Below are positions 21,775-62,060 of a stretch of DNA of 64,000 bases, piece by piece. The translations under genes and the position numbers were made by a program. The stretch is from a virus. Every line of letters starts with the position of its first letter. Position 1 is the first letter of the stretch. The DNA is taken from positions 58,133-122,132 of the IMG/VR virus record IMGVR_UViG_3300034418_011550. The stretch is one strand, 5' to 3'. The notes under the pieces were generated by a model. The model worked only from the letters and a program-made list of their open reading frames with translations. It searched no databases and was not told the origin of the DNA.

Positions 21775-21776
21775 TT

Positions 21777-22589: not shown

Positions 22590-22602
22590 TATTTATAATA
22601 AT

Positions 22603-22860: not shown

Positions 22861-23347
22861 CGAAACAGAAATTAAAAACAAAGTAGGTGAAATTGCCTAC
22901 ATGATTAAAAAAAGATATCACGAACAACCTCCTGTACTTATTTGTGTTTTAAACGGCGCTTTTATGTTTTTCACAGATTTAGTGAAACATATGGATGACT
23001 GCTATATAGACTTTATACGTGCGAAATCCTACAATGATACTACACAGGGCGAAATCTATATCACAAAACAAATCGAAATGGATATTACTGGAAAAGATGT
23101 TTACATTATTGACGACATTTATGATTCAGGTAATACTATGAACCGCCTAGTTAAACATGTTAGTTATGGTAATCCAAAATCAATCACTCCAGTAACATTG
23201 TTTAAAAGACACACTGCTGAAAATGATGATTTAATTTATGGGTTTAATTTAGAAAATGAATACTTTTTAGTAGGTTATGGTTTAGATGGAGTAGGTGATT
23301 TAAAACGCAATCAAAAATACATTACTGGATTAATGAGTGATGATTAA
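22847..23347 (+). CDS. hpt: Hypoxanthine-guanine phosphoribosyltransferase-like enzyme
   Basis: CVLNGAFMFFTDL, PRPP-binding IIDDIYDSGNT, FLVGYGLD. Confidence 0.85.
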   Translation: MVLFNETEIKNKVGEIAYMIKKRYHEQPPVLICVLNGAFMFFTDLVKHMDDCYIDFIRAKSYNDTTQGEIYITKQIEMDITGKDVYIIDDIYDSGNTMNRLVKHVSYGNPKSITPVTLFKRHTAENDDLIYGFNLENEYFLVGYGLDGVGDLKRNQKYITGLMSDD

Positions 23348-23394
23348 TTTAATTTGGTTCTTTTAAAATTAGTTATTATATTAAAGTATAAGTT

Positions 23395-31372: not shown

Positions 31373-32986
31373 ATGAGTAAAATTATAGAATTTGGTCCCG
31401 ATGCAAGGGAAAAAATGATTAATGGTATTGATAAACTAGCTAATGCTGTAACATCAACACTTGGTCCTAATGGACGAAATGTAGTTATTGCAAACGGAGG
31501 TATTCCACAATCAACTAAAGATGGTGTAACAGTAGCTAAATCAATTACCTTAGAAGATCCAATTGAAGAATTGGGTGTACAATTAGTTAAACAAGCAGCT
31601 ATTAAGACTGCTGATAATGCTGGTGATGGTACTACAACTTCAACTTTGTTGGCTCGTGAAATGGCTAAACAAGGTCTTAAGTATCTTAACCATGGAGAAA
31701 ATGCTGTTGAAATTAAACGTAGTATTGATAAAGCAGTAAAAGAAGTAGTTGAACATCTACGTCATGAAATTAAAGAAGATATTTCAGATGAGGAACAACT
31801 TAAACAAATTGCAACAATTTCAGCTAATAATGATTCTGAAGTAGGAGAATTAATTGCTACAGCAATGCAAAAAGTAGGTCGTGAGGGAGTTGTATTCATT
31901 GAAGAGTCTAAAAATGGTGAAACATATCTTGAAACAGTAGAAGGTATGCAGTTTGACAGAGGTTATAAATCACCTTATTTTGTGACTGATAATAACTCAA
32001 TGAGTACTACTTTAAATGATGCTTTGATTTTGATTGCCGATAAGCGTTTTACTCAAGTAAAAGAGTTGTTGCCTATTTTAGAAGCTGTATCTAACCAAAA
32101 TAAACCTTTAGTATTGATTGCTGAAGATATTGATGGTGAAGCATTAGCTACTTTAATTGTAAACAAAGCAAGAGGTATTTTAAAAGTTGTAGCAGTTAAA
32201 GCCCCTGACTTTGGTGACCGTCGTAAATTGATTCTTGAAGACATTGCTACCATGACAGGTGGCCAAGTATTCAGTACTGAAAAAGGTATGAAATTAGATA
32301 AATTTAGTTGGGATTGGTTTGGTCAAGCTCGAGTAGTTACTGTAGGTAAAGATGAAACTACTATTGTAGATGGTAAAGGTGATGCTGATAAAATTGCTGA
32401 ACGTATTGAAGAACTTCAAACACAAATTGATAAATCTGTTTCTCCATATGAAAAAGAAAAATTACAAGAACGTTTAGCTAAGTTTATTGGTGGTGTTGCT
32501 GTTGTTCATGTAGGTGGATTTACAGAAGCTGAAATGAAAGAAAAGAAAGACCGAGTAGATGATGCTTTACAAGCTACTAAAGCCGCTCTTGAAGAAGGTA
32601 TTGTACCTGGTGGTGGAATGGCTTTGCTACACTCTCGAAATGGTATTAGTGATTTTAATACTATTGGTGGTCGAATTGTTTATAATGCCTGTGCTGAACC
32701 ATTTAAGAAAATTTTAGCCAATGCTGGTTATGAACAAGAAGATATATATAATGCCTTATCAGGAGCAACAGGAGGTGATTATTGGTATGGATTTAATTTG
32801 AATGATGAAGATTTCTGTGATATGAGAGAAATTGGAGTAATTGATCCAGCTAAAGTAACTCGTACAGCTCTTGAGAACGCAGCTTCAGTAGCTGGTACTA
32901 TCTTATTGACAGAAGCAGTTGTTGTTGACAAACCTGAGGATAAAAAAGATGATGCTGGGTTTGGAGACATGATGGGAATGATGTAA
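31373..32986 (+). CDS. groEL: Chaperonin GroEL
   Basis: [49 protein letters not shown]-terminal GM repeats. Confidence 0.97.
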
Positions 32987-36882: not shown

Positions 36883-38319
36883 ATGGAATCACGTTTTGAA
36901 TATCTTCCTCCTGAGAAGAGGAAAAAAATTGTTTTTATCTCTGATGATTTAAGAGTTCACTCAGGAATTGCTACTGTAGCGAGAGAAATTGTAATTCATA
37001 CAGCCCATCATTTTAATTGGGTAAGTGTAGGAGGAGCTGTTAAACATAATGAGGAAGGTAAAAGATTAGATTTATCTCAATCAACTAATGAAGTAAATGG
37101 CTTAAAAGATTCATCAGTTATAATGTATCCCGTTAGTGGATATGGTAATCCTGATTTTTTAAGACAATTAATTGAATTTGAGAAACCAGATGCTATAATG
37201 ATGATCACTGATCCTCGTTATTATATTTGGTTGTTCCAAATGGAAAATGAAATTAGAAGAAAAATTCCTATTGTTTATTTAAACATTTGGGATGATTATC
37301 CTGCTCCACTTTATAATAAACCATATTATGAAGCTTGTGATTTATTAATGGGTATTTCAAAACAAACAGTAAACATTAATAGACTTGTGTTAGGTGATAA
37401 AGCTGATAAAAAACTTCTTAAATATATTCCTCATGGATTAAATCATAATGTGTTTAAACCTTTAGATAAAAAAGATCCTAAACTATTAGAGTTTAAAAAC
37501 AAATTATTTAAAGGTAAAGAATATGATTTCGCTTTATTGTTTAATTCTAGAAACATTAGGCGTAAACAAATTCCTGATACTATTTTGGCTTATAGATATT
37601 TCATTGATAACTTACCTAAAGAACAAGCTAAAAAATGTTGTTTGATTTTACATACTGAAAGATCATTAGAGCATGGTACTGATTTGGAAGCAGTGATTGA
37701 ATTACTTTTAAATGAAGATCATTATAATGTAGAATTTACAGATGCTAAATTCAACCCAGAACAAATGAATTACTTATATAATAGTACAGATGCTCAAATA
37801 TTATTAACTTCAAATGAAGGATGGGGTTTGAGTATTACTGAAGCTATTTTAGCTGGTAATTTAATTATTGCTAATGTAACTGGTGGTATGCAAGATCAAA
37901 TGAGATTTGAAGATGAGGAGGGTAATTGGTTTACTCCAAGTGCTGATGTACCATCAAACCATACTGGAAAATATAAAAAACATGGTGAGTGGGCATTTCC
38001 AGTTTATCCAACCTCAAGAACATTAGTTGGTTCACCACCAACACCTTATATTTGGGACGACACTTGTAGACCAGAAGATGCTGCTGAACAAATTATGAAT
38101 GTTTATTCTTTAACTAAAGAAGAAAGACAATCAAAAGGTTTTAAAGGTAGAGAATGGGCCTTAAGTGATGAAGCAGGTTTTACCTCTTATCATCAAGCTG
38201 AAAGAGTGATGGACTCTATAAATGAATTATTTAATACTTGGGAACCAAGAGAAAAATATGAATTAATAAATGTAAATACTTATCCTGATAGAGTTATAAA
38301 TCATAAATTGTTATATTAA
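36883..38319 (+). CDS. GT-B (GT4-like) glycosyltransferase
   Basis: SGIATVARE, NSRNIRRK, SNEGWGLSITEA. Confidence 0.85.
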   Translation: MESRFEYLPPEKRKKIVFISDDLRVHSGIATVAREIVIHTAHHFNWVSVGGAVKHNEEGKRLDLSQSTNEVNGLKDSSVIMYPVSGYGNPDFLRQLIEFEKPDAIMMITDPRYYIWLFQMENEIRRKIPIVYLNIWDDYPAPLYNKPYYEACDLLMGISKQTVNINRLVLGDKADKKLLKYIPHGLNHNVFKPLDKKDPKLLEFKNKLFKGKEYDFALLFNSRNIRRKQIPDTILAYRYFIDNLPKEQAKKCCLILHTERSLEHGTDLEAVIELLLNEDHYNVEFTDAKFNPEQMNYLYNSTDAQILLTSNEGWGLSITEAILAGNLIIANVTGGMQDQMRFEDEEGNWFTPSADVPSNHTGKYKKHGEWAFPVYPTSRTLVGSPPTPYIWDDTCRPEDAAEQIMNVYSLTKEERQSKGFKGREWALSDEAGFTSYHQAERVMDSINELFNTWEPREKYELINVNTYPDRVINHKLLY

Positions 38320-39626
38320 TGAAACCGTTATTTGTAATAAGTTCTCCTTTTGACACCTATAGTGGCTATGGCGCCAGAGCAAGAGATTTAGTTAAAGCCA
38401 TTATTGAAACTGATAAATACGAAGTAATGTTAATGTCTCAGCGTTGGGGCAATACACCTTTTGGATTCTGTAAAGACAATCCAGAATGGGAATTTCTTTT
38501 AGAAAAAACATTACCAGGTAATCAATTAACTAGACAGCCTGATATTTGGGCTCAAGTTACTGTACCTAATGAATTTCAAAGAGTAGGTAAATTTAATATT
38601 GGTTTTACAGCTGGTATTGAAACAACTGTTTGTGCAGGGGAATGGATTGATGGATGCAATAGAATGGATTTAAATATTGTTTCTTCAGAACATTCTAAAA
38701 AAGTTTTCCAAAACTCTAAATTTGAAAAAAGAAATAAACAAACTAATGCTTTAGAAGGTGAGATTGAATTGTCAAAACCAATGGAAGTATTGTTTGAAGG
38801 AGCAGATTTAGACATTTACAAACATCTTAGTTATGGTACTTATGAAGATAATTTATCTGAGTTAAGAAACATTAAAGAAAAATTCGCTTACTTATTTGTA
38901 GGTCATTGGATTCAAGGTGACTTAGGAGAGGATAGAAAAAATGTAGGTTTGTTAGTTAAAGCATTTTTTGAAGTATTCAAAAATAAAACCAATAGACCAG
39001 CATTAATCTTAAAAACATCTCAAGTTGGTTCTTCATATCTTGATAGAGAAGAAGTAATTAAGAAAATTAAAAAAATAGCTAAAACAGTAAATTCTAAAAA
39101 TTTACCTAATGTTTATGTTTTAAATGGAGAATTAAGTGATGAAGAAATGAATGAACTTTATAATCATCCTAAAGTAAAAGCTATGGTTAGTTTAACTAAG
39201 GGTGAAGGTTTTGGTCGTCCATTACTTGAATTTACTTTAAGTAAAAAACCATTACTAACTACAGGATGGTCTGGTCATATGGATTTTCTTGATCCTAAAT
39301 TCGTTACTTTAGTTAAAGGACAATTAACTAATGTTCATCCAAGTGCAGCTAATCAATTCTTATTATCTGACTCTCAATGGTTTAGTCCTGATCATACTGA
39401 AGTAGGATTTTACCTAAAAGATATTTTTGATAACTATAAAAAATATACTGAAGGAGCTAAAAAACAAGCTGAAAAAACTAAAAATGAATTTAGTTGGGAT
39501 AAGATGAAAGATAAAATAGATCAAATTTTAACTAATCATCTTCCTGAATTTCCAAAAGAAATAAAATTAGAAATACCTAAATTAAATAAAATTCAATTAC
39601 CTAAATTAGAAAAAATAGATGGATAA
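38319..39626 (+). CDS. GT-B (GT4-like) glycosyltransferase
   Basis: SGYGARARD, DRKNVG, KGEGFGRPLLE, TGWSGHMDF. Confidence 0.85.
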   Translation: MKPLFVISSPFDTYSGYGARARDLVKAIIETDKYEVMLMSQRWGNTPFGFCKDNPEWEFLLEKTLPGNQLTRQPDIWAQVTVPNEFQRVGKFNIGFTAGIETTVCAGEWIDGCNRMDLNIVSSEHSKKVFQNSKFEKRNKQTNALEGEIELSKPMEVLFEGADLDIYKHLSYGTYEDNLSELRNIKEKFAYLFVGHWIQGDLGEDRKNVGLLVKAFFEVFKNKTNRPALILKTSQVGSSYLDREEVIKKIKKIAKTVNSKNLPNVYVLNGELSDEEMNELYNHPKVKAMVSLTKGEGFGRPLLEFTLSKKPLLTTGWSGHMDFLDPKFVTLVKGQLTNVHPSAANQFLLSDSQWFSPDHTEVGFYLKDIFDNYKKYTEGAKKQAEKTKNEFSWDKMKDKIDQILTNHLPEFPKEIKLEIPKLNKIQLPKLEKIDG

Positions 39627-40074
39627 TTTAATAACATGCGACCGTTGCCAATCAGATGCTTGTTATGTATCTGAAGTAAATGCAGACATTAAAACTTACT
39701 TTTGCTATGGATGTGGCTTTCAAACTAACTCTTTAATGATGGAAGGGGAAGAATTTTTAGAACAACAAAAAGAAACTCTACCAGAACTTTATAAAGATTT
39801 ATTTAGTAAAGATAAAAAAGGAAAAATTTGGATGCCATCAGCAGTAAATATTCCTAATCAAGGAATGATTTTTGCTAATGGAGCCAATATCAGAGATTGG
39901 AATTGGAGTGCTGTTAAAGCAGTTCCTGTAACAGAAGAAGAAAAAGAAAAATACCCTATACCAGGAAAGGAAGGTCAATACTATGAATGGAGAATGGATA
40001 TGACCACACTTAAAAACTTCCCAGAACGTGAGTATATGGATGCTCTTTCTTACATTGGAGTATTACCCGAATGA
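39619..40074 (+). CDS. Hypothetical zinc-ribbon protein
   Basis: CDRC...CYGCG. Confidence 0.5.
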   Translation: MDNLITCDRCQSDACYVSEVNADIKTYFCYGCGFQTNSLMMEGEEFLEQQKETLPELYKDLFSKDKKGKIWMPSAVNIPNQGMIFANGANIRDWNWSAVKAVPVTEEEKEKYPIPGKEGQYYEWRMDMTTLKNFPEREYMDALSYIGVLPE

Positions 40075-40679
40075 TTAGTTTAGCAATTACAGTTTGTAAC
40101 GAACATAAAGAGTTAGAGACTCTATTGGATTATTTATCCGATAGAGCTCTCTTTCCTGATTATGAAGTTGTAATTCAAATTGATAAAGACAATTACACTG
40201 ATGATGTTGTTAGTGTTATTGTTGGAAGGGGAATCAAACATTGGTTCTATCCATTAAATAAAGACTTTGCTAGTTATAAAAATGAGCTAGCAAAACACTG
40301 TGAAGGAGAATATATCTTCCAAATCGATGCTGACGAATTACCCTCAGCAGATTTACTTAACATGCTCCCAAGCATATTAGAAAGCAATCCCGAAGTGGAT
40401 GTATACTTAGTTCCTCGAATTAATACTGTAAGTGGTATCACCGAGGAACATATCCTCAAGTGGGGCTGGAGATATGAAAACGATAGAGTAAATTTCCCTG
40501 ACTATCAATGGAGAATTTATCGAAATGATAAATCAATTAAATGGAAAAATAAAGTTCATGAGGTGTTAGAAGGTTATAAAGGTTATGCTGCTTTACCTGC
40601 TCAAGATGAATTTTGTTTATTACATCCAAAAACAATTGAACGCCAAGAAAAACAAAACCAGTTTTATAATACAATATGA
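40071..40679 (+). CDS. GT-A (GT2-like) glycosyltransferase
   Basis: ITVCNE, DFASYKN, QIDADE (DxD), PDYQWR, HE. Confidence 0.85.
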   Translation: MISLAITVCNEHKELETLLDYLSDRALFPDYEVVIQIDKDNYTDDVVSVIVGRGIKHWFYPLNKDFASYKNELAKHCEGEYIFQIDADELPSADLLNMLPSILESNPEVDVYLVPRINTVSGITEEHILKWGWRYENDRVNFPDYQWRIYRNDKSIKWKNKVHEVLEGYKGYAALPAQDEFCLLHPKTIERQEKQNQFYNTI

Positions 40680-41488
40680 AAATAAAAGTAAATCATTTTG
40701 ATAAAAAAGTTTTTGAAGATAAATTACAACATTTATCCCATATTGATTTTTCTTTATTTGTAGATGCCATTCCTGAAAGTCAAGAGGAATTATCTTCTGT
40801 TAATATTATTTCTTTTCAAGAACCAAATGAATACTTCGGTTTACATGATTGGGTTATAAAAAATAAAGATATATTTTCAGTTATATTAACTTGGGATGAT
40901 AAAGTATTAAACCAATGTGATAATGCTATTTTTCAACCATTTGGACACACCTGGCTAAAACCAGACCAATATGAAAAAGAACATAAAAAAGAATTTAAAT
41001 TAGCTCATTTACAAGGTAAACTACTTAAAACATACGGTCATTCTTTAAGACATGAAGTAACAGCTAGAGAAAATGAATTTAAAATACCTACTAAATTCTA
41101 TGAAACTTATGGAGATAGAAACAACATTGATGATGCTCGTTTAGGTAAAGAATTTATATTCAGTGATTCACAGTATGGAGTAGTAATTGAAAATACTTCT
41201 CATAGAGGTTATTTTACTGAGAAAATATTAGATTGTTTTTTACTTAAAACTATTCCTTTATATTGGGGTTGTTCAAACCTATGGGATTATTTTGATACAG
41301 ACGGTATTATAAATATTAATAACATTGATGACTTAATTAATGTAGCAAATAATTTAACTGAAGATTTTTATGAATCTAAAAAAGAAGCTATTAATAAAAA
41401 TTGGCAATTAGCTTTAAATTATGTACATTACGAACAAAACATAATTAATACAATAACTAAAATTTTTAAACACAATAATCTTATATGA
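40676..41488 (+). CDS. GT10-like (alpha-1,3-fucosyltransferase-like) glycosyltransferase
   Basis: YGVVIENTSHRGYFTEKILDCFLLKTIPLYWG is the GT10 donor-binding motif. Confidence 0.72.
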   Translation: MKIKVNHFDKKVFEDKLQHLSHIDFSLFVDAIPESQEELSSVNIISFQEPNEYFGLHDWVIKNKDIFSVILTWDDKVLNQCDNAIFQPFGHTWLKPDQYEKEHKKEFKLAHLQGKLLKTYGHSLRHEVTARENEFKIPTKFYETYGDRNNIDDARLGKEFIFSDSQYGVVIENTSHRGYFTEKILDCFLLKTIPLYWGCSNLWDYFDTDGIININNIDDLINVANNLTEDFYESKKEAINKNWQLALNYVHYEQNIINTITKIFKHNNLI

Positions 41489-42627
41489 AAAAAATATGGT
41501 ATGCCCCTTATAAGTTTGAGTCTTATGGGGAAGAAGAAATCAAAGCAGTAGAAGAATCACTCCGATCAGGTTGGTTAGGTGGACAAGGACCTAAATCTGT
41601 TGAATTTGAAGAAAAAATAGCTAAACACTTTGGTAAAAAGTATGGTGTATTTGTAAATTCAGGTTCATCAGCTTGTTTACTTGCTTTAGCTAGTTTACAA
41701 CTGCCTAAAGGTACTAAAATTGTTACACCAGCATGTACCTTTTCAACTACATTAGCTCCTATTATTCAATTAGGACTCAAACCAGTATTTGTTGATGTTG
41801 GAGTAAATGATTATGTAGCCCAAGTAGGTGAAGTGTTAGCTGCTATTGATGATGAAGTTAAAGTCCTCATGTTGCCTAATTTGATTGGTAATAAACCAAA
41901 TTGGAAAGAAATCAAAGAAGGTTTAATAGCAATGGGTCGCGAAGATATTATTTTGATTGAAGACTCAGCAGACACAGTCACTCATACTCCAGAATCAGAT
42001 ATCGCCACTACTAGTTTTTATGCATCACATGTTATTACAGCAGGTGGTTCAGGTGGTATGGTAATGTTTAATGATAAGAAATTAGTAAATGTTTGTTTAC
42101 AATTCCGAGATTGGGGACGAATGGGTAATGACTCAGAAATTATGTCTGATCGTTTTAACCATGATGTAGATGGTATTGCTTATGACCATAAATTCTTATA
42201 TAGTGTTTTAGGTTATAACTTTAAATCATCTGAAATGAATGCTGCTTTTGGATTGGTTCAATTGGATCGTTTTAAAGAATTTGAACAAATTCGTAGAGCA
42301 AATATTGAGCGTTATATTAAAAATCTTCAAGGTGTAGGTGATATTGTATTACCTGATGATTCAATTAAACCAAATTGGTTAGCAATTCCTTTACAAACTG
42401 AAAAACGTTTTGAACTATTGAATTTCTTGGAAGACAATAATATCCAAACTCGTGTGACATTTGCTGGTAACGTAACTCGTCACCCTGTTTACAGAGAATA
42501 TCTCCAACCATTCACTAATTCAGATCTTATTATGAAAAATGGTTTCTTATTAGGAGCACATCATGGTATGACTATTGAAGATGTAGATTATGTTTGTGAT
42601 AAAATCAAAGAATTTTTTAATAAATAA
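41485..42627 (+). CDS. DegT/DnrJ-family PLP enzyme; ColD/E1-type NDP-4-keto-6-deoxysugar 3-dehydratase
   Basis: NSGSSA, IEDSAD, SFYASHVITAGGSGG with His at the position of the usual PLP lysine. Confidence 0.75.
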   Translation: MKKIWYAPYKFESYGEEEIKAVEESLRSGWLGGQGPKSVEFEEKIAKHFGKKYGVFVNSGSSACLLALASLQLPKGTKIVTPACTFSTTLAPIIQLGLKPVFVDVGVNDYVAQVGEVLAAIDDEVKVLMLPNLIGNKPNWKEIKEGLIAMGREDIILIEDSADTVTHTPESDIATTSFYASHVITAGGSGGMVMFNDKKLVNVCLQFRDWGRMGNDSEIMSDRFNHDVDGIAYDHKFLYSVLGYNFKSSEMNAAFGLVQLDRFKEFEQIRRANIERYIKNLQGVGDIVLPDDSIKPNWLAIPLQTEKRFELLNFLEDNNIQTRVTFAGNVTRHPVYREYLQPFTNSDLIMKNGFLLGAHHGMTIEDVDYVCDKIKEFFNK

Positions 42628-42630
42628 TTA

Positions 42631-44409
42631 GTGAAAAAAACATTAGAACATTTAGTTGACTCTTTAGTTTATAATAATATAGATACCTTTTTTCTAGTTA
42701 CTGGAGGTGCTATTGCTCCTATAGTAGATTATATAGGACAACATCCAAAAACTAAATATTACTGTTTTCAACATGAACAATCAGCTGCTATGGCGGCTGA
42801 AACATATTTCAGAACATCAGGAAAATTAGGAGTAGTACTAAGTACTAGCGGCCCAGGAGCTCAAAATTTATTGAATGGCATTTGTGGATGTTGGTATGAA
42901 TCAATTCCTTGCTTATTTATAACAGGTCAGGTTAGTACTTATGAATCTATTGATTGTATAGAATCAAATCCAAGACAACTAGGTTTTCAAGAAATGCCTG
43001 TTGTAGAATCTTTTAAACCATTTACTAAATTTATTAAAAAATTAACTTCAAATAATGATTTTAATCAAACTTTAAAACAAGCAATTGAAACTTGTTTTAT
43101 TGGAAGGTTTGGTCCTAGTCTATTAGATATCCCAATGGATATCCAAAATCGACTATTAGAAGATACTTCTTTAATTAAATTTAATACATATAGTCCTATT
43201 ATTGATGAAAATTTAGAAAATAAAATAAAGAATATTAATATAAAAATCAAAGAAAGTAAAAGACCACTTTTATTAATAGGTCATGGGGTTAGATTATCTA
43301 ATTCAATGGATGAAGTATTAATGTTGATAAATAAATTAAATATTCCTTTTGTTGTTAGTTGGGGTGGTTTTGATTCTATTCCTCATAATCATCCTTTATT
43401 TATAGGAGACATAGGAGTTTATGGAAGTAGAGGAGGCAACTTCGCCATCCAAAATTGTGATTTACTGTTATCTATAGGTTCTAGATTAGATACAAGACAA
43501 ACTGGAGGTGATTTAAAAACATTTTCAAGAGAATCATATAAAATTATGGTTGATATAGATGAAAATGAAATAAAAAAAGGTAGAGGATTAAATATAAACC
43601 TACCAGTAGTTTGCGATGCTAAGATCTTTATTAATCATTTATTTGGTTCTTGTGAACCTCAAGATAAAAAAGAATGGAACCAAAAATGTCAAGATTATAA
43701 AAATATAAAAGAAAATAGAACTTTAAAAGAAGATGTTTTAACTTCTTATGAATTTTTAGAACAACTAAATGATAATCTTCCTGAAGACTCAGTTATTATT
43801 CCTGATGAGGGAGGTCATTTAGTGTGGGCTATGCAATCTTTAAAAACAAAATTTAAACAAAGAATATTTTCTAATTTTGGAAACTCATCAATGGGGTATG
43901 GATTACCAGCAGCGATAGGAGCAGCTATTGGGACTGATAAACCTGTAATTTGTATTGATGGAGATGGAGGTTTTCAAATGAATATTCAAGAACTCCAAAC
44001 TGTTAAACATTATAATTTACCTATTAAGATTTTTATAATGAATAATAATTGTTACGGTATTATTAAACAATTTCAAGATTTAGTCTTCAACTCCAGATAT
44101 ATAGCTACTGAAAATAAAGATTATTCAGTTCCTGACTTTATTAAAGTGGCTCAAGCATATGGTATTAAAGCAGTAGAAGCTAACAAAAATAACTTTAAAG
44201 AAGTAATAAATTTGGCTTTACAAGAAGAAGGAAGTATATTAGTAAATGTTATTATTGATAGAGAACAAAAATTATTACCAAAATTAGAATTTGGAAATCC
44301 TTTAGAAGATATGTTTCCTTATCTAGAAGAAGATATTTTAAATAAAAATATGATTATAAATAAAATTCCAAGAAAAGAAAAAATTAAAAGTTGGGTTACA
44401 TTAAAATAA
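42631..44409 (+). CDS. Thiamine-diphosphate-dependent enzyme (acetolactate synthase-like / YerE-like carboligase)
   Basis: HEQSAAMAA, TSGPG, TGQV, GDGGFQMNIQEL...MNNNCYG. Confidence 0.85.
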   Translation: MKKTLEHLVDSLVYNNIDTFFLVTGGAIAPIVDYIGQHPKTKYYCFQHEQSAAMAAETYFRTSGKLGVVLSTSGPGAQNLLNGICGCWYESIPCLFITGQVSTYESIDCIESNPRQLGFQEMPVVESFKPFTKFIKKLTSNNDFNQTLKQAIETCFIGRFGPSLLDIPMDIQNRLLEDTSLIKFNTYSPIIDENLENKIKNINIKIKESKRPLLLIGHGVRLSNSMDEVLMLINKLNIPFVVSWGGFDSIPHNHPLFIGDIGVYGSRGGNFAIQNCDLLLSIGSRLDTRQTGGDLKTFSRESYKIMVDIDENEIKKGRGLNINLPVVCDAKIFINHLFGSCEPQDKKEWNQKCQDYKNIKENRTLKEDVLTSYEFLEQLNDNLPEDSVIIPDEGGHLVWAMQSLKTKFKQRIFSNFGNSSMGYGLPAAIGAAIGTDKPVICIDGDGGFQMNIQELQTVKHYNLPIKIFIMNNNCYGIIKQFQDLVFNSRYIATENKDYSVPDFIKVAQAYGIKAVEANKNNFKEVINLALQEEGSILVNVIIDREQKLLPKLEFGNPLEDMFPYLEEDILNKNMIINKIPRKEKIKSWVTLK

Positions 44410-44413
44410 AATT

Positions 44414-45349
44414 ATGGCAGCAGATAGTAAAACTAAAAAAACAATTCTTACCCTTAATCAAAATAAGAGTAAAGGAAACAAAACTGTATTAGTCACTGCG
44501 TATGATTACCCTCAAGCACGTATGGCAGACGCCGCTGGGGTTGATTGTATTTTAGTAGGTGATTCATTAGGCATGACTACATTAGGTCACAAAACAACTA
44601 TTCCTGTAACTATGGATGATATGATTCGTTCGTGTGAAGCAGTAAGTAGAGGTAATGAAAATGCTCTCTTAATTGGTGATATGCCCTATATGTCCTACCA
44701 ACCATCAGATCAAGTAGCAATTGAAAATGCAGGTCGTTTTATTGTTGCTGGGTGTGATATGGTTAAAGTAGAAGGCGCTATGGTTGACCGAGTTAAAGCC
44801 ATTGCTAGCTCAGGTATTATGGTTATGAGTCATTTAGGTCTTACACCTCATACTCGCGCTAAATTAGGTGGTTATAAAGTTCAAGGCAAAACAGCAGCCC
44901 AAGCTGAAATTGTTTTAAAACAAGCTTTAGCTCTTCAAGAAGCAGGTTGTTCAGCCTTATTACTTGAGGCAATGCCTAAAGAACCAGCAGGAATGATTGC
45001 CCGTGCTTTAGATATCCCCGTTTATGGAATTGGCGCTGGTGATGAAGTAGATGGTCAGTTAGTTATTTTTCATGATCTAATGGGACTATTTTGGGAATTC
45101 AAATCAAAATTTGTTAAACGTTATTGTGAAGCGGGTCAAATTATGACTCAAGCATTAACAGATTATGCTAATGAGGTTCGTAATGGTCAATTCCCATCAC
45201 AAGAAAATTTCTATGAAATTAAAGAAGAAGAACTTGAAAAATTACTAGGAGATGAAAAATGGAAATATGAGTTAGATAAAGATTATTATAACAATAATAA
45301 CCATAGTGTGACTCCAATTACTAATAATCCTACAGTAGTAAAACGTTAA
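44414..45349 (+). CDS. panB: Ketopantoate hydroxymethyltransferase-like enzyme
   Basis: TAYDY, LVGDSLGM, DMPYMSY, VKVEG, HLGLTP, GIGAG, DGQ..HD. Confidence 0.88.
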   Translation: MAADSKTKKTILTLNQNKSKGNKTVLVTAYDYPQARMADAAGVDCILVGDSLGMTTLGHKTTIPVTMDDMIRSCEAVSRGNENALLIGDMPYMSYQPSDQVAIENAGRFIVAGCDMVKVEGAMVDRVKAIASSGIMVMSHLGLTPHTRAKLGGYKVQGKTAAQAEIVLKQALALQEAGCSALLLEAMPKEPAGMIARALDIPVYGIGAGDEVDGQLVIFHDLMGLFWEFKSKFVKRYCEAGQIMTQALTDYANEVRNGQFPSQENFYEIKEEELEKLLGDEKWKYELDKDYYNNNNHSVTPITNNPTVVKR

Positions 45350-46116
45350 TGAATATTTTAATTACAGGGGCGGGGGGGTATATTGGAAAAGTTTTTTATA
45401 ATTATTTTAAAACTGAGTATAATATATCTCTTTTAACCCGAAAAGAAGCAGATTTAACTAATTTAAAACAAGTTAAAAGTTTTTTTCAAGACAAATATTT
45501 TGATATTGTAATACATTGTGCTATAGTAGGGGGAGGTAGATTAGATGAGGATACTCCTTCTGTATTAGATGACAATTTAAAAATGTATTACAATTTATTA
45601 GAATGTGAAAATCACTTTAATAAATTAATCCATTTCGGTTCAGGAGCAGAATCACAAGAAAGTTTTTATGGATGGAGTAAAAAAATAATTCATAACTCAA
45701 TTCAAGATAAAGATAAATTTTATAATATTAGAATTTTAAATGTATTTGATGAAAATGAGTTAGATTATAAATTTATTAAAACTAACATTCAAAAATACAT
45801 AAATAAACAAGATATAGAAATCTTTCAAAATAAGTTTATGGATTTCTTTTATATGGAAGACTTAGTTACTTTAATTAGATATTATATTAACAATGATGGT
45901 CCTAAAGTAATAGATTGTTGTTATGATTATTCTCCTACATTATATGATATAGCTCAAATTATAAATAATTTATCTGATTATAAGGTCAATATAAATTTTA
46001 AAAATTGGAATATGGCTCCTCCCTTTAATGGAAAATTTACTAATTTAAATTTAAAATTTATTGGTTTAGAACAAGGTATAAAAAATGTATATAATATTTT
46101 AAAGAATGAATATTAA
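45349..46116 (+). CDS. NAD-dependent sugar epimerase/reductase (extended SDR)
   Basis: ITGAGGYIG, VIHCA, YGWSK. Confidence 0.82.
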   Translation: MNILITGAGGYIGKVFYNYFKTEYNISLLTRKEADLTNLKQVKSFFQDKYFDIVIHCAIVGGGRLDEDTPSVLDDNLKMYYNLLECENHFNKLIHFGSGAESQESFYGWSKKIIHNSIQDKDKFYNIRILNVFDENELDYKFIKTNIQKYINKQDIEIFQNKFMDFFYMEDLVTLIRYYINNDGPKVIDCCYDYSPTLYDIAQIINNLSDYKVNINFKNWNMAPPFNGKFTNLNLKFIGLEQGIKNVYNILKNEY

Positions 46117-47020
46117 AATATCTTGTCATATAATGCCCTGGGATATAGATTATGCTTTATTAACTTTTACCCAATTAAAAAAATCATTTCCTTATATACC
46201 AAAAGATGTTAATATTACTTTAAATCCTGAATTAAATTTATCTAATTATCTAGTAGATTGGAATAATAGTAAATTACCTAAAAATTATTTTATAGATAAA
46301 TTCAATACTCTTCTCTATCTATTAGAAGACTACTCAGTCAATTCAAAAATCAATGAAGAAGATATTCTTTATGGCCATTTAGACCAACAAAGAAACCTAA
46401 TATCAGAGGAAGTAGATTATTATATGAGTATTTGTCCTGATGTTTATTTTAGTGAATATACTCTTTATTATTTAATAGAATCAGCTAAACAAATAAAAAA
46501 TAAATATTTTGTATTAAGTCCCCAACATAGAAAATTAACTGATAATAGTTGGGATCCAACTACTGATAAAGATTATTTAAATATACCTTATGAAAAATGT
46601 GATGAAGTTAATATTTTTGATATAAGATATAATAGTAAACAAAAAAATGATTTAACAGTAGAACCAGTTCACACACCTAAATTTGCTGGTTGGTGTGATT
46701 TATATAGTAAAGCATTTTATGAAGATTTAGTTCCTATACATGATGATTGGAGTGGTTATGGCCCTTGGGATTGGTATAGTATGATTTTAATAAATTATGC
46801 TAAACAATTTAATCTTGACTTTCAACAGTATGTTTTAAGAGGACTTACAGTAGGAGACTATTGGACAGGTAATTGGAAAGAAAAAGATGGATTATCAGGT
46901 TACTATAAGAGTTTAATAGTTAAAAAAGATATACCTGACCAAAGAGCTAATTTTGAAGCTAATTTAGAAGAATATGTCAAGAAAGGTATTTTAATGTTAA
47001 AAGAAAAAGGAATCATATGA
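46106..47020 (+). CDS. Hypothetical glycosyltransferase-like protein
   Basis: ICPDVYF, W.GYGPWD; context within the glycosylation island. Confidence 0.45.
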   Translation: MNIKISCHIMPWDIDYALLTFTQLKKSFPYIPKDVNITLNPELNLSNYLVDWNNSKLPKNYFIDKFNTLLYLLEDYSVNSKINEEDILYGHLDQQRNLISEEVDYYMSICPDVYFSEYTLYYLIESAKQIKNKYFVLSPQHRKLTDNSWDPTTDKDYLNIPYEKCDEVNIFDIRYNSKQKNDLTVEPVHTPKFAGWCDLYSKAFYEDLVPIHDDWSGYGPWDWYSMILINYAKQFNLDFQQYVLRGLTVGDYWTGNWKEKDGLSGYYKSLIVKKDIPDQRANFEANLEEYVKKGILMLKEKGII

Positions 47021-48375
47021 TTAAATTAATTGTATTTGATTTGGATGGAGTTTTAGTAGAGGCTAAAAATATCCATTTTGAAGCATTAAATAAAGCTTTA
47101 GGTAAATACGCTATTGATTGGAACGAGCATTTATCTACTTATGATGGTTTGAAAACAAATCAAAAACTAGAAATGCTTCATAAGAATAAAGGTTTACCTA
47201 AAGAGAAATTTGAAGAAGTATGGAATAATAAACAAAAATATACTCTAGAGGCATTAGCTAGTTTAAAAAAAGATGATACTTTATATTCAACTATCCAAAA
47301 TTTATCATCAGATGGATATAAATTAGCTGTTTGTTCTAATAGTATTCGTAAAACAGTATTAACTGTATTATCTAAATTAGGTATTATTGAGTTTTTTGAT
47401 TTGATATTATCAAATGAAGATGTTCAAAACAGTAAACCCCATCCAGAAATGTATTGGAAGGCTATCTCAAAAATGAGTTGTCTGCCTGAAGAAGCATTAA
47501 TTATTGAAGATTCACCTTACGGATTGTTAGCTGCTTCTAGAAGTAAAGCTCATATACTTAGAGTTGGATCCCCTAAAGAAGTTAATTATATTAATATAGC
47601 TCAAAAAATTAAATCAATTAAAGAAGGATATATTATGAAATCACCCGCTTGGAGAGATGAAAAATTAAATATACTTATACCAATGGCTGGTGCTGGTTCT
47701 AGATTTGAACAGGCTGGTTATACATTTCCTAAACCGCTTATTGATGTTAGGAATAAACCTATGATTCAAGTGGTAGTTGAAAACCTTAATATTAAAGCTA
47801 ATTACGTTTATATTGTTCAAAAGAAACATAGAGAAAAATACAACCTAGATACTCTACTTAATCTAATTACTCCAGGTTGTAAAATAGTAGAGGTTGATGG
47901 TTTAACTGAAGGGGCTGCTTGTACAGCATTACTAGCTAAAGAATATATTAATAATGATGCTCCTTTATTCTTTGCCAATTCAGACCAGTTTGTTGAATGG
48001 GACTCAAATGAGTTTATGTATAAAATGAATGAAACAAATACTGATGGAGGTATTGTTACATTTGAAGCCACTCATCCTAAATGGTCATTTGCTAAAGTAA
48101 ATGAATTAGGATTAGTAACTGAAGTAGCTGAGAAAAATCCTATATCAAATATTGCTACTGTTGGTTATTATTATTGGAAACATGGTTCTGACTTTGTAAA
48201 ATATGCTGAACAGATGATTGATAAAAATATTAGAGTAAATAATGAGTTTTATGTTTGTCCTGTATTTAATGAAGCTATTCAAGACAATAAACAAATTAGA
48301 ACATTTAATATAGATAAAATGTGGGGGTTAGGAACACCTGAAGATTTAAAATATTATCTAGAAAATTACAAATGA
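47017..48375 (+). CDS. HAD phosphatase fused to a sugar-phosphate nucleotidyltransferase
   Basis: FDLDGV, SKPHP, IEDS; then IPMAGAGSRF..GY..PKPLI, NSDQ, GTPEDL. Confidence 0.85.
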   Translation: MIKLIVFDLDGVLVEAKNIHFEALNKALGKYAIDWNEHLSTYDGLKTNQKLEMLHKNKGLPKEKFEEVWNNKQKYTLEALASLKKDDTLYSTIQNLSSDGYKLAVCSNSIRKTVLTVLSKLGIIEFFDLILSNEDVQNSKPHPEMYWKAISKMSCLPEEALIIEDSPYGLLAASRSKAHILRVGSPKEVNYINIAQKIKSIKEGYIMKSPAWRDEKLNILIPMAGAGSRFEQAGYTFPKPLIDVRNKPMIQVVVENLNIKANYVYIVQKKHREKYNLDTLLNLITPGCKIVEVDGLTEGAACTALLAKEYINNDAPLFFANSDQFVEWDSNEFMYKMNETNTDGGIVTFEATHPKWSFAKVNELGLVTEVAEKNPISNIATVGYYYWKHGSDFVKYAEQMIDKNIRVNNEFYVCPVFNEAIQDNKQIRTFNIDKMWGLGTPEDLKYYLENYK

Positions 48376-48800
48376 TACTAATTAGCCATAGAGGAAATAC
48401 CAATGGTCCTAACCCTGAAAAGGAAAACCATCCAGACTACATTATAAAAGCATTATCTGAAGGGTATGATGTTGAAGTTGACGTTTGGTATGTTAATGGT
48501 GAATTTTATTTAGGACATGATAAACCTCAATACAAAACTAATAAAATATTTTTAAGTAATAATCATCTATGGGTTCATTGTAAAAATGTAGAAGCATTGA
48601 ATCAATTTAGATTTGATTCCGGTATTAATTATTTTTGGCATGAAAATGATACAGTTGCTTTAACTTCACAAAAATACATTTGGGCCTACCCAGGCAAACA
48701 ACCTATTAAAAATAGTATAGCAGTTATGCCTGAACTTTATTTAGATGATGTAAATCAATGTGCAGGGATTTGTTCTGATTATATTCAAAATTATAAATGA
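48372..48800 (+). CDS. Glycerophosphodiester phosphodiesterase-like (PLC-like TIM barrel) protein
   Basis: ISHRGN, DVEVDVW, LGHD, HCKN, GICSD. Confidence 0.65.
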   Translation: MILISHRGNTNGPNPEKENHPDYIIKALSEGYDVEVDVWYVNGEFYLGHDKPQYKTNKIFLSNNHLWVHCKNVEALNQFRFDSGINYFWHENDTVALTSQKYIWAYPGKQPIKNSIAVMPELYLDDVNQCAGICSDYIQNYK

Positions 48801-49501
48801 GTCAAGGAATAATAATACAAGGACCAACAGATTATGCTTCCCATATAGTAGATTCATATGAGGGAATAGATAATGTTGTTTGGTCAACTTGGATAGATGA
48901 ACCTTTAAGTAATATTGAATTAATTAAATCAAAAGGAATAGAAGTAGTACAAATTGATAAACCTACTATTGCAGGACATATAAATGTTAATTTTCAAACA
49001 TTAAGTACTTATTTTGGTATCAACCATTTAAAAAATAAAGGAGTAACTGAGGGATTAAAAGTAAGAGGAGATATGAAAATAAATAATCCTAAGTTACTTT
49101 TAGAAGTAATAAAAGGAAAGAAAATATCTTTTTTATCTATATGTAAACCTAATATTAGACCTTTATATTATGAATTAGTTTACCAACATACAAGTTTTGA
49201 CTTCCCAGGAGATTTAGTTTTGTATGGTAGTTTGGATGAGTTAGAAAAATGTTTTAACTTCCAGGTTGAAGATAATAATCCTATTCCTCCTGAGGCATTA
49301 ATTGCTTATAGTTATTTAACACAATCAAATATAGAATTTAATTTTGACTATGACCATTTTATTAATTCAGGTATTAGTTTCTTTGCTCAAGAATGTTTAG
49401 ATAATAATATAGAAATTGATTGGTTAAAGCGAAGTAATGAAGAACCGTTTTGGAAAAATATATTAAACCACTCAGCAGATAAAACTTTATATAATTATTA
49501 A
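48797..49501 (+). CDS. Hypothetical surface-glycan synthesis protein (WavE-like)
   Basis: GIIIQG, VVWSTW, KVRGD pattern; context. Confidence 0.4.
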   Translation: MSQGIIIQGPTDYASHIVDSYEGIDNVVWSTWIDEPLSNIELIKSKGIEVVQIDKPTIAGHINVNFQTLSTYFGINHLKNKGVTEGLKVRGDMKINNPKLLLEVIKGKKISFLSICKPNIRPLYYELVYQHTSFDFPGDLVLYGSLDELEKCFNFQVEDNNPIPPEALIAYSYLTQSNIEFNFDYDHFINSGISFFAQECLDNNIEIDWLKRSNEEPFWKNILNHSADKTLYNY

Positions 49502-49502
49502 A

Positions 49503-50417
49503 ATGATATCATTAATTATACCCACTAATAAAACTAACTCTAATTATACAAAATACCTTGTAAATAATATTAGGGAAATTTATCCTGATGAAAATCAAGT
49601 AGAAGTAATTGTATCTGAAGATGATACAGTGACTATGGGAATAAATTATAATAATGCTGTTGCTAAAGCTAAAGGTGAAAAAATTATTCTACTCCATAAC
49701 GACATGGTTATTAAACCTGGTTTTGTAGAACAAATGGATAAAGACATCACTAAAGGTAGAATTACAGCATACACCAGAATTGAACCTCCTATCTACCCAG
49801 ATACATTTCCTGGTAAAATGATTTTGGATTGTGGAACTGATTTAGATAATTTTAATTATCAAAAGTTTTTAGATTTTAAAATTGAAGACACTACTTTACT
49901 TGATGGTGGTGCCCAAATGTTTTTTGGTTGTATGAAAGAGGATTACTTAGGTATTGATGGAGTTACTTTTCAATTGTTTTGTGAAGATGATGATCTACAT
50001 TTAAGACATAACATAGCTGGTTATGAACAAAAAGTTAGCTCAGCTCATGTTTATCATTTTGTTAGTAAATCATCTCGAGTAGGAAACTATCAAGAAATTG
50101 AACAACAATCAAATTATAATTTTGTTAAAAAATGGGGTTTTAGAAGATCTCATTACAATGTTGTGTATAATAAAAAATATGTTATTAAAAACACTAATAG
50201 TAAGTTAGATGAAACTTTAAAATGGTGGTTTAATGATGGAGAGGATATTATTGTTGAAGTTGATGGAAATACATTCACTAATCAAGATTATAATTATATC
50301 ACTCAACTAAATGATATTATAAAAGAAACAAATGAAATAGGAACTTTCCAAATTGGAAATCTTAAAATAACAATAAACAGTTTAGAAGAACAACAGAACA
50401 AACTAATTAGATTATGA
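49503..50417 (+). CDS. GT2-like glycosyltransferase
   Basis: ISLIIPT, LLHNDM, CEDDD, VYHFVSKS. Confidence 0.8.
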   Translation: MISLIIPTNKTNSNYTKYLVNNIREIYPDENQVEVIVSEDDTVTMGINYNNAVAKAKGEKIILLHNDMVIKPGFVEQMDKDITKGRITAYTRIEPPIYPDTFPGKMILDCGTDLDNFNYQKFLDFKIEDTTLLDGGAQMFFGCMKEDYLGIDGVTFQLFCEDDDLHLRHNIAGYEQKVSSAHVYHFVSKSSRVGNYQEIEQQSNYNFVKKWGFRRSHYNVVYNKKYVIKNTNSKLDETLKWWFNDGEDIIVEVDGNTFTNQDYNYITQLNDIIKETNEIGTFQIGNLKITINSLEEQQNKLIRL

Positions 50418-50986: not shown

Positions 50987-51283
50987 ATGAAATGTATTAA
51001 ATGTGGAGAGATCATTCCTGAAGGAAGATTAAAAGCAATGCCTGGAGCAAAAACATGCATTACTTGTTCAAATGTTAAAATGAAAGGTGTAGTAACAGTA
51101 ATGAAAGGTGAGGGTGACCACACCTGGATTGAAACTATTCATTTAGAACATGACGAGCATAGAAAATATATGGAAGCTGAAAATAAACTTCGTAAAGGAG
51201 GACAAACATCATTTGATCCATCAGATGATGAAAAAGGGGTTCCATATGGTTTTAATGAAACAAAGTTAAAAAAAGAAGAATAG
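50987..51283 (+). CDS. TraR/DksA-type C4 zinc-finger protein
   Basis: CIKCGEIIPEGRLKAMPGAKTCITC. Confidence 0.75.
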   Translation: MKCIKCGEIIPEGRLKAMPGAKTCITCSNVKMKGVVTVMKGEGDHTWIETIHLEHDEHRKYMEAENKLRKGGQTSFDPSDDEKGVPYGFNETKLKKEE

Positions 51284-60621: not shown

Positions 60622-61278
60622 ATGAATTATAGAGACTCAGACCCAAATTCAGAATGGGGCATTATTAAATCTGATCAAATAAGTTACAATATAAGGGATA
60701 AAAGATTCTTTGTAGTAGATAACTTTTATGAGGATCCTTATCAAATTAGAGAATTTGCTCTACAACAAACTTATTTTGAAGGTGAAGGAGCAGTAGGTTT
60801 TAGAACACGTAAACAATATCTCTTTGGTGGACTTAAAGAGCAATTTGAAAGTATAATGGGTATTAAAATACAAGAACATACTGATGATGGTTATGGGTGG
60901 TATGACTCTGGTATTAATGGTCGTTTTCAATTTTGCCCAGCAGGCACTCCAAGTGTTTACCATTGTGATTCTCAAAAATGGGCTGCTGTTATTTACTTAA
61001 CACCTGATGCTCCTCCATCTGGTGGTACTAGTTTTTTTAGACATAAGGAAACTAAAATACATCATAACTCTCAAATCGACTGGTCAACAGGTATAGGTGA
61101 AAAAGTATTTAATCAAAAAACATTTTTAGATGGCTCTCCTTATGAAATGGTTGATACAGTTGGTAATGTTTTTAATAGGCTAGTTATTTTTGATGGAGGC
61201 CTTATTCATTCAGGCATAAATTATTTTGGATGGGATTTAGAATCTAGTAGGTTGTTTCATATATTTTTCTTTAGTTAA
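60622..61278 (+). CDS. 2-oxoglutarate/Fe(II)-dependent oxygenase
   Basis: HCD...YLTP...GGTSF...FNRLVIFDG.LIHS...R (HxD...H triad). Confidence 0.8.
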   Translation: MNYRDSDPNSEWGIIKSDQISYNIRDKRFFVVDNFYEDPYQIREFALQQTYFEGEGAVGFRTRKQYLFGGLKEQFESIMGIKIQEHTDDGYGWYDSGINGRFQFCPAGTPSVYHCDSQKWAAVIYLTPDAPPSGGTSFFRHKETKIHHNSQIDWSTGIGEKVFNQKTFLDGSPYEMVDTVGNVFNRLVIFDGGLIHSGINYFGWDLESSRLFHIFFFS

Positions 61279-62060
61279 TGAATTCAATACCAGTAATAGG
61301 AGTAGCTATAGTGAATGGTTTTCACTGGTTAGAAAGGTTAGTTGACAGTATAGACTATCCTGTAGATAATTTTGTTATTTTTAATAATAATGGAAAAGGT
61401 GAGCTTACTAGTCAATTAGATGAATTAGTTAGCAAAAAACACCCTTATATAAGTAATATAAACGTTTGTCATTTACCTGCTAATATTGGGTGTGGGGGAG
61501 CATGGAACTTAATTATTAAGTCATATATGAAAGCTCCTTACTGGATTATATCAAGCCATGATACTGCTTTTGTTCCTGGTTTATTAGAAGAAATGGCTCA
61601 AGTAGCTTCTGACTCTGAAGTTGGAATGATTCATCCTAATGGGGGTGATTTTGGAGATGGTAGTTATGATTTATTTTTAATTAAGGATTGGGTTGTTCAA
61701 AGCCATGGTTTATTTGATGAAAATCTTTATCCTGCTTATTGTGAGGATGCTGATTATATTATGAGAGTTCATAACAAACCATTCAAACGAGTAACTCAAT
61801 TATCTAAAATTCATTTACATGGTAATGGCCCAGCTAATGAGTATTATACTTATGGTGCCCAAACTAAAAAAGCAACACCTGAATTGAATACTAGATTAGA
61901 TAATATAAATGAAACTAATTTTAAATATTTAAATCAAAAATGGGGACCAGGTTGGAGGATGACTAATCCTTACAAACATCCAATGAACCGAGTAGGTGTT
62001 CCATTAGGCTATACAACATATGATTTAGAGTTTGTAAGGAGTAAATATTTAGGGTTCTAA
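61278..62060 (+). CDS. GT2-like glycosyltransferase
   Basis: SIDYPVD, NIGCGGAWN, SHD, GLFDENLYPAYCEDADY. Confidence 0.8.
   Translation: MNSIPVIGVAIVNGFHWLERLVDSIDYPVDNFVIFNNNGKGELTSQLDELVSKKHPYISNINVCHLPANIGCGGAWNLIIKSYMKAPYWIISSHDTAFVPGLLEEMAQVASDSEVGMIHPNGGDFGDGSYDLFLIKDWVVQSHGLFDENLYPAYCEDADYIMRVHNKPFKRVTQLSKIHLHGNGPANEYYTYGAQTKKATPELNTRLDNINETNFKYLNQKWGPGWRMTNPYKHPMNRVGVPLGYTTYDLEFVRSKYLGF

Follow-up and report, generated by a model that had tools for sequence, protein, structure and literature searches.

A viral operon that couples a YerE-like carboligase to PanB and may build an acyl-branched dideoxysugar

INTRODUCTION

Branched 3,6-dideoxysugars are built by described enzyme systems that share a plan. 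In the pathway to CDP-yersiniose A of Yersinia pseudotuberculosis, the three-domain thiamine diphosphate (ThDP)-dependent enzyme YerE uses pyruvate as its donor and, like PpYerE and JanthE, acts on a ketone acceptor; an E1-type 3-dehydratase stands upstream and YerF, a short-chain dehydrogenase/reductase (SDR), downstream. In the erwiniose cluster of Pectobacterium atrosepticum, a bacterial lipopolysaccharide (LPS) locus, the aldolase-dehydrogenase pair ErwI/ErwJ makes 4-hydroxy-2-oxopentanoate, which ErwE ligates to CDP-4-keto-3,6-dideoxyglucose, rejecting pyruvate and accepting 4-hydroxy-2-oxobutanoate, before ErwF reduces the branch (PMC9306805). Erwiniose and the related caryophyllose and gastriose clusters have been brought together in a "unifying scheme" for acyl-branched sugars (PMC9306805). 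Here we analyze a stretch of 64,000 nucleotides of viral DNA (IMG/VR record IMGVR_UViG_3300034418_011550, positions 58,133 to 122,132; hereafter the window), in which a five-gene cassette at 40676-46116 encodes a GT10-like glycosyltransferase, a DegT-family sugar 3-dehydratase, a ThDP enzyme, the 2-oxoacid hydroxymethyltransferase PanB, and a short SDR.

Viral homologues of two of these genes have been read in terms of primary metabolism. The "acetolactate synthase" of prasinoviruses has been assigned to valine, leucine, and isoleucine synthesis (PMC5371798), and the PanB of OlV7, OlV2, OlV5, OlV6, and OtV-2 to vitamin B5 synthesis, with its role unknown (PMC6851583). A preliminary description of the window proposed that the cassette is instead a deoxysugar C-branching pathway, and the YerE-like signatures and conserved synteny reported below support this: the operon that holds the cassette probably builds and transfers an acyl-branched 3,6-dideoxyhexose of the yersiniose/erwiniose type. 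Our literature search found no paper that proposes a donor role for PanB or connects branched sugars with PanB or the "acetolactate synthase" of viruses.

RESULTS

A YerE-like carboligase under an acetolactate synthase label

Automatic annotation names the ThDP enzyme of the window the large subunit of acetolactate synthase (acetohydroxyacid synthase [AHAS]). The enzyme contains all three Pfam TPP_enzyme domains and the GDG motif (IDGDGG in the alignment), and it falls below every NCBIfam AHAS cut-off (402 bits on TIGR00118, against a cut-off of 538). In comparisons with proteins of known structure it scored 300 bits with 5ahk, which we take to be PpYerE, and 321 bits with 8rph, against 245 bits with the best AHAS. 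The 8rph entry is JanthE (PMC12188165), and structures of both PpYerE and JanthE exist (PMC12247030). For residue comparisons, AHAS II numbering was verified on Salmonella IlvG (E47, F109, M250, R276, V375, and W464). At the W464 position the window enzyme has Phe, as does 5ahk, and a loop insertion after GQV is common to the window enzyme, JanthE, and 5ahk and is not found in AHAS.

The genetic setting is also that of a sugar enzyme. The 3-dehydratase gene lies directly upstream, and Pfam searches of the window open reading frames (ORFs) found neither an AHAS small subunit nor ilv genes, in contrast to a housekeeping ilvG (L217), which sits with ilvM, ilvE, and ilvD. Because the scores favor JanthE and 5ahk, W464 is replaced by Phe, the YerE-type loop insertion is present, and a small subunit is lacking, the protein is best classified, on its sequence, as a YerE-like sugar C-branching carboligase and not as an AHAS. 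A ThDP enzyme that is 96% identical (P0002) occurs on a 164-kb contig.

PanB keeps company with the carboligase

The PanB of the window clears the TIGR00222 equivalog cut-off of 207.55 bits (Table 1) and is 41 to 46% identical to housekeeping PanB (E. coli, 1m3u; M. tuberculosis, 1oy0). Like housekeeping PanB, it conserves all catalytic and metal-binding residues (those matching D45, S46, D84, K112, E114, and E181 of E. coli PanB), and the catalytic residues are invariant across the viral PanBs. It differs in having a C-terminal extension of ~45 amino acids and a Trp insertion (W227). The clade-specific substitutions comprise only mild hydrophobic swaps and that one insertion and do not clearly point to a changed substrate. 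We placed 85 viral PanBs in a tree with 145 representatives of 50%-identity clusters. Of the viral proteins, 81 group in a single clade (support 0.98) that contains phage and prasinovirus-like subclades and stands apart from ~130 cluster representatives; the other four fall in a second clade.

Using the window PanB and ThDP enzyme as queries, we gathered 135 IMG/VR loci and located their neighbors by tblastn with the window proteins. In every PanB-bearing contig among them, PanB adjoins a three-domain ThDP enzyme, in one of three gene orders (ThDP enzyme then PanB, PanB then ThDP enzyme, or divergent). The pair is accompanied by an E1-type DegT enzyme, an SDR, and, in nearly all loci, an RmlB-like 4,6-dehydratase. 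One group of loci consists of close relatives of the window (DegT 66 to 90% identical), and a second of phage contigs with a true E1, in which PanB is 70 to 84% identical and the ThDP enzyme only 33 to 37%. The third (PanB 49 to 55% identical) includes giant-virus-binned contigs and a 196-kb contig; CheckV estimates of completeness imply genomes of ~190 kb, and we take this group to be prasinovirus-like.

Cellular genomes served as a control. In bacterial and archaeal assemblies, the 80 nearest PanB loci include 75 in which PanB stands alone and only three with an adjacent ThDP enzyme (L137, L138, and L140). Two of these three lie on contigs of 30% GC that were binned with Pelagibacter and Prochlorococcus but are probably phage DNA. 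The third, on a Chloroflexi metagenome-assembled genome (MAG) contig of 62% GC (L140, 302-8419), places the ThDP enzyme and PanB with a DegT enzyme, an extended SDR, a NUDIX protein, a B12-binding radical SAM protein, and a methyltransferase, and suggests that the pairing of PanB with a ThDP enzyme is not confined to marine viruses. Among PanBs on contigs that are not phage-like, the closest (60% identical; on a 150-kb contig of a Gammaproteobacteria MAG, L139, 8338-13486) has no ThDP enzyme nearby and adjoins a nonribosomal peptide synthetase-like A-T-TE protein and a methyltransferase, a natural-product context and not a pan operon.

No parallels were found among cultured phages: the panB and ilvB matches in INPHARED are at most 46% and 33% identical, respectively, and the majority have the look of bacterial DNA that has entered phage records. 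The sole annotated INPHARED phage panB, that of Microcystis phage MaAM05 (L001, MW495066.1, 254360-273139), stands with panC, pxpA, and sufBCDS-iscU, and its region has the same bacterial look.

In contrast to its housekeeping counterpart, the PanB of this viral clade always adjoins a YerE-like enzyme and in no case accompanies panC or panE. Family searches of window ORFs of at least 200 amino acids found no PanC, PanE, IlvC, or IlvD, which agrees with the preliminary description, and no PanC, PanE/ApbA, ketol-acid reductoisomerase, or IlvD was found in relative genomes estimated to be 90% and 100% complete, although the same searches matched 9 to 14 of 14 control genomes. A panC or ilvC elsewhere in the genome, which the preliminary description had named as speaking against its proposal, was not seen in these relatives. 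These observations bear on the possibility that the two genes are auxiliary metabolic genes, with an acetolactate synthase boosting valine, leucine, and isoleucine and PanB boosting pantothenate and coenzyme A. The automatic label, the equivalog score of PanB, and the published readings of the prasinovirus homologues all point that way, and a host pathway could supply the partner enzymes; set against them are the AHAS cut-offs that the YerE-like enzyme does not reach, the missing small subunit and partner genes, the contrast with housekeeping ilvG, and the embedding of the genes among seven glycosyltransferases and a sugar 3-dehydratase. We consider such a metabolic role very improbable, in line with the view of the preliminary description that it fits poorly, and the ThDP and PanB genes of the window are probably glycan genes rather than amino acid or vitamin genes. 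A phosphonate pathway (phosphoenolpyruvate mutase, phosphonopyruvate decarboxylase, and aminotransferase) is ruled out by the full-length, strong PanB match and the three-domain ThDP enzyme.

A donor-pocket residue varies with PanB

According to its title, as cited in PMC5727371, the study of Steinmetz 2010 (PMID 20504042) attributes the pyruvate donor specificity of AHAS II to Val375. Glu393 of the window enzyme aligns with this residue, at which 5ahk has Val and JanthE Met; the hotspot residues described for JanthE concern the acceptor side and do not help in placing position 393 (PMC12188165). We read the residue at this position in 102 distinct viral ThDP enzymes. With PanB adjacent (n = 85) it is A in 29, Q in 25, C in 17, and E in 14, and in none of the 85 is it V, I, L, or T; where there is no PanB (n = 13), it is I in eight, S in four, and T in one. 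The Chloroflexi ThDP enzyme, with PanB beside it, has C.

The prasinovirus-like clade offers the closest comparisons, as PanB-less lineages arise in it at least three times (node supports 0.9 to 1.0), each with a change from Q to I or T, and one pair of ThDP enzymes, from a PanB-positive and a PanB-negative locus, is 81% identical. Within this clade, two of ~590 alignment columns segregate perfectly with PanB, namely positions 393 and 443; the latter (window ~43957-43959), the residue before GDG, is D or E where PanB is present and A or N where it is missing. When polyphyletic sets of three clades were drawn at random in 2000 trials, 91% of the trials gave no perfect column and 2.4% gave at least two. 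Searches of nine PanB-less records, which are fragments, detected no PanB at any position, while one was detected in a PanB-positive control record.

Such covariation would be expected if the PanB-less enzymes use pyruvate and the PanB-linked ones another donor, hydroxylated or bulkier, and to that extent the alignment supports a link between PanB and donor choice. Together with the synteny, the YerE-like signatures, and the missing partner genes, it makes the role put forward in the preliminary description, that PanB makes the 2-oxoacid donor of the ThDP enzyme, the most likely one. The covariation also argues against PanB acting after branching, an order of events in which the ThDP enzyme would add acetyl from pyruvate and PanB would hydroxymethylate the enolizable branch or keto sugar. 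Chemically this is conceivable, as an alpha-hydroxyketone could chelate Mg2+ as a 2-oxoacid does, and the same alternative has been raised for the erwiniose aldolase (PMC9306805). A pyruvate donor, however, predicts V or I at the Val375 position, where E, Q, A, and C are seen with PanB; the PanB residues for the 2-oxoacid carboxylate and Mg2+ are all kept; and in the analogous erwiniose system pyruvate was rejected by ErwE (PMC9306805). We regard PanB action after branching as improbable.

The 3-dehydratase and the sugar nucleotide

E1 (DdhC, RfbH) is a CDP-6-deoxy-L-threo-D-glycero-4-hexulose 3-dehydrase, and ColD is a GDP-4-keto-6-deoxymannose 3-dehydratase. The DegT protein of the window shares with both the DegT fold and a His in place of the pyridoxal phosphate (PLP) lysine: its translation reads SFYASHVITAGG and FRDWGRMGND, its His coincides with that of E1 in an alignment with PDB entry 3bcx, and none of its residues aligned with the Cys-rich stretch DCYCAPGCDNTC of E1 is a Cys, all of which agrees with the preliminary description. 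It is shorter than E1 (380 versus 437 amino acids) and stays under the RfbH cut-off of 423 bits, and with ColD it has in common the absence of an Fe-S cluster and of an E3 partner, as no NAD_binding_1 (E3-type reductase) protein was found in four related viral records. By sequence it is nonetheless nearer E1 (3bcx, 206 bits) than ColD (132 bits). We read it from these comparisons as an enzyme of the E1 (RfbH/DdhC) lineage that appears to have lost its Fe-S cluster and would have to act in a ColD-like way, so that the earlier designation "ColD-type" holds for the active-site His and the missing cysteines but not for descent. In its place, a complete E1 that retains the cysteines is encoded on some related phage contigs (L014, 460 bits on RfbH).

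The nucleotide of the sugar is a related question. The preliminary description favored a GDP-mannose route, in which Gmd and a ColD-type 3-dehydratase would give GDP-4-keto-3,6-dideoxymannose, to be branched and then transferred by the GT10-like protein. The ColD-like mechanism expected of the dehydratase is in line with this route, as are the fucosyltransferase (FucT) fold and motif of the GT10-like protein, all characterized GT10 enzymes using GDP-fucose to our knowledge, and in two relatives (L007 and L125) a Gmd gene immediately precedes the GT10-like gene and DegT. The proximity of the dehydratase to E1 speaks against it, and so do the 4,6-dehydratases of the relatives, which adjoin the DegT or ThDP gene in nearly all loci and in close relatives stand between the two: they have STDEVYG and YxxxK and score 302 to 309 bits on TIGR01181, against 77 to 90 on the CDP-type model and 51 to 59 on the Gmd model, and are thus RmlB-like. 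Among near-complete relatives, the closest (G001, 148 kb) encodes no 4,6-dehydratase other than the RmlB-like one and lacks Gmd, yet the GT10-like gene is kept. We therefore consider the GDP-mannose route unlikely and a GDP-linked sugar doubtful. As to the nucleotide itself, an NDP-glucose route (dTDP or CDP) is somewhat favored, GDP is a clearly weaker candidate, and the small remainder is unassigned. The nucleotidyltransferase domain of the window scores best, if weakly, on RmlA-type models (rmlA_long, 51 bits), and the fusion protein that contains it has a PDB match to the NDP-sugar pyrophosphorylase 4evw and directly follows the RmlB-like dehydratase in one relative (L092). The fusion gene and the gene for a 142-amino-acid protein co-occur in L009, L125, L092, and L021.

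Neither a Gmd nor an RmlB-like gene is present in the window, in which tblastn with queries of both kinds and Pfam searches of ORFs of at least 200 amino acids found no 4,6-dehydratase, a gap that the preliminary description overlooked. The DegT gene runs to 42627 and the ThDP gene follows from 42631, and it is exactly at this junction that relatives (L005, L012, and L022) have the 4,6-dehydratase gene. The gene could be encoded beyond the 64 kb; alternatively, the phage may use a host intermediate.

Two candidates for the transfer of the sugar

The AlphaFold2 (AF2) model of the GT10-like protein (pLDDT 91) has the alpha-1,3-FucT of H. pylori as its top fold match (2nzw, E 2.6e-8); FUT9 and plant FUT11/13 are further matches, and the top Foldseek matches are all GT10. 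An alignment shows E172, N173, Y179, T181, E182, and K183 to be conserved, which presumably correspond to the FucT motif ENxxxxxYxTEK. The model and motif identify the protein as a real GT10-type (GT-B) fold, as the preliminary description had it, whereas the further claim that it transfers the branched sugar is not established, since the linkage of its gene to the cassette is inconsistent among relatives. The 304-amino-acid protein encoded just after the cassette is an equal candidate: its AF2 model (pLDDT 86) matches COLGALT1, the glycosyltransferase domain of LH3, and GalNAc-T2 in Foldseek (E ~5e-7), and its GT-A gene is kept after the SDR gene in close relatives.

The operon and its surroundings

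The five cassette genes called as ORFs (Table 1) are contiguous and coupled, as the preliminary description stated, their junctions being in order a 4-nucleotide (nt) overlap, a 3-nt gap, a 4-nt gap, and a 1-nt overlap. They form the middle of a longer glycosylation operon. Tight packing spans 38319-50417, and adding the GT4 gene upstream gives a 14-gene operon at 36883-50417. The short SDR has the GAGGYIG and Y107-x3-K111 motifs, and in most relatives its gene follows that of either PanB or the ThDP enzyme. A scan for promoters and terminators in the window gave motif counts below those of shuffled sequence.

Table 1. Genes of the glycosylation operon, with window coordinates and the basis of each assignment
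Feature	Coordinates	Strand	Evidence
GT4-type (GT-B) glycosyltransferase	36883-38319	+	Pfam Glycos_transf_1 / Glyco_trans_1_4; syntenic with cassette in related phage contigs
Second GT4-type glycosyltransferase	38319-39626	+	Pfam Glycos_transf_1; syntenic in relatives
151-aa protein of unknown function with N-terminal Cys-rich (zinc-ribbon-like) stretch	39619-40074	+	Sub-threshold Pfam hints only; position kept in close relatives
GT2 glycosyltransferase	40071-40679	+	Pfam Glycos_transf_2, E 6e-9
GT10-like (alpha-1,3-fucosyltransferase-like) glycosyltransferase	40676-41488	+	Pfam GT10, E 3e-4 (below cut-off); fold match
Pyridoxamine phosphate (PMP)-dependent NDP-4-keto-6-deoxyhexose 3-dehydratase (DegT, E1 lineage), as read from sequence	41485-42627	+	Pfam DegT, 234 bits; RfbH, 260 bits
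YerE-like ThDP-dependent carboligase (by sequence), auto-labelled acetolactate synthase large subunit	42631-44409	+	Pfam TPP_enzyme N, M, and C; PDB matches
PanB (2-oxoacid hydroxymethyltransferase), virus-specific clade	44414-45349	+	Pfam, 329 bits; TIGR00222, 280 bits
Short SDR, 255 aa, candidate YerF/ErwF-type reductase of the branch ketone	45349-46116	+	Pfam Epimerase; RmlD_sub_bind at N terminus
GT-A fold glycosyltransferase, 304 aa	46106-47020	+	No Pfam match; AF2 model and Foldseek
HAD-IA (beta-phosphoglucomutase-like) and sugar-1-phosphate nucleotidyltransferase fusion	47017-48375	+	Pfam HAD_2 and NTP_transferase; NCBIfam bPGM family
142-aa phage-specific protein	48372-48800	+	No Pfam match; atlas: viral clusters only, weak GDPD lead (0.85)
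234-aa protein of unknown function	48797-49501	+	Sub-threshold WavE (LPS synthesis) hint, E 0.016
GT2-like glycosyltransferase, final gene of the operon	49503-50417	+	Pfam Glycos_transf_2, E 1e-5

All long ORFs of the window are on the + strand, and its GC content is ~30%. Replication genes of the T4 type are present (family B DNA polymerase, gp32, clamp loader, DnaB-like helicase, ribonucleotide reductase, and ThyX), and the DNA polymerase shares no more than 34% identity with its counterpart in any cultured phage. The window looks like part of a large uncultured marine phage. A group of genes at 19882-24084 encodes QueC (19882-20733), a radical SAM protein that is possibly QueE-like (21777-22589), and GTP cyclohydrolase I (23395-24084), likely a 7-deazaguanine (preQ0-type) pathway, a DNA modification route of some phages. 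The window also encodes a 442-amino-acid protein with an EF-hand calcium-binding motif (15122-16450), a GroEL/Cpn60-type chaperonin (31373-32986; Pfam, 241 bits), and, just downstream of the sugar operon, a DksA/TraR-type zinc-finger protein (50987-51283). Just past ThyX, a DUF6445 protein and then another GT2 glycosyltransferase (60622-62060) form a second small glycosylation-related pair.

DISCUSSION

Our results lead us to propose the following order of events for the acyl-branched 3,6-dideoxyhexose that the operon probably makes. The fusion of HAD and nucleotidyltransferase domains would supply an NDP-hexose, from which an NDP-4-keto-6-deoxyhexose would form with a 4,6-dehydratase from elsewhere in the genome or from the host. 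The His-type, Fe-S-free, E1-like enzyme would then strip the 3-hydroxyl by a ColD-like route, while PanB with methylene-tetrahydrofolate would hydroxymethylate a 2-oxoacid, for which pyruvate, 2-oxobutanoate, and 3-methyl-2-oxobutanoate are candidates among which the sequence cannot choose. The YerE-like enzyme would decarboxylate the hydroxylated 2-oxoacid and add the acyl anion to the C4 ketone, the short SDR would reduce the branch ketone, and one of the glycosyltransferases of the operon would install the sugar, the probable targets being glycans of the virion or of the host surface.

The erwiniose pathway follows the same logic, in that a dedicated enzyme makes a gamma-hydroxy-2-oxoacid donor, a YerE-like ThDP enzyme joins this donor to a 4-keto-3,6-dideoxyhexose at the C4 ketone, and an NAD(P)H reductase and a nearby glycosyltransferase accompany the two. 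The erwiniose donor, however, comes from a pyruvate aldolase, while that of the window would come from a methylene-tetrahydrofolate hydroxymethyltransferase and give a hydroxymethyl-derived branch terminus; and whereas the former is a bacterial locus, the latter is viral, with a 3-dehydratase that has no Fe-S cluster and no E3 reductase. Compared with the yersiniose pathway, with which it shares an E1-type 3-dehydratase upstream and an SDR downstream, the window differs in the Glu at the Val375 position and in the coupling of its ThDP enzyme to PanB.

Several points weigh against this proposal. The window is without the 4,6-dehydratase that nearly all relatives have beside the ThDP enzyme, so that the pathway in it may be incomplete or host-dependent. 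Because PanB scores above the equivalog cut-off of the housekeeping family and departs only mildly from it at clade-specific positions, its sequence alone shows no new substrate. The covariation has a rough control (p ~0.02) and a second segregating column, position 443, that is without explanation; the PanB-less records on which it draws are fragments, 11 to 43% complete; and the structural role given to position 393 is borrowed by analogy from AHAS II and not from a YerE-like structure.

Extended to the related loci, our findings would mean that T4-like phages and giant viruses of green algae make undescribed C4-branched dideoxysugars by way of a PanB-made donor, and that the residue at the Val375 position (I/T, E/Q, or A/C) predicts the branch; we see about an even chance that this is so. 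Cultured prasinoviruses with PanB (such as OlV7 and OtV-2) and without it (OlV1) exist (PMC6851583). If the proposal is true, viral "acetolactate synthase" and "panB" labels would move from amino acid and vitamin metabolism to glycan synthesis, and PanB would become a further known source of donors for the C-branching of sugars. For biocatalysis, the residue "code" at the Val375 position would then offer a testable handle on the donor scope of YerE-like enzymes, and new sugars would be expected on the virions of very abundant ocean viruses.

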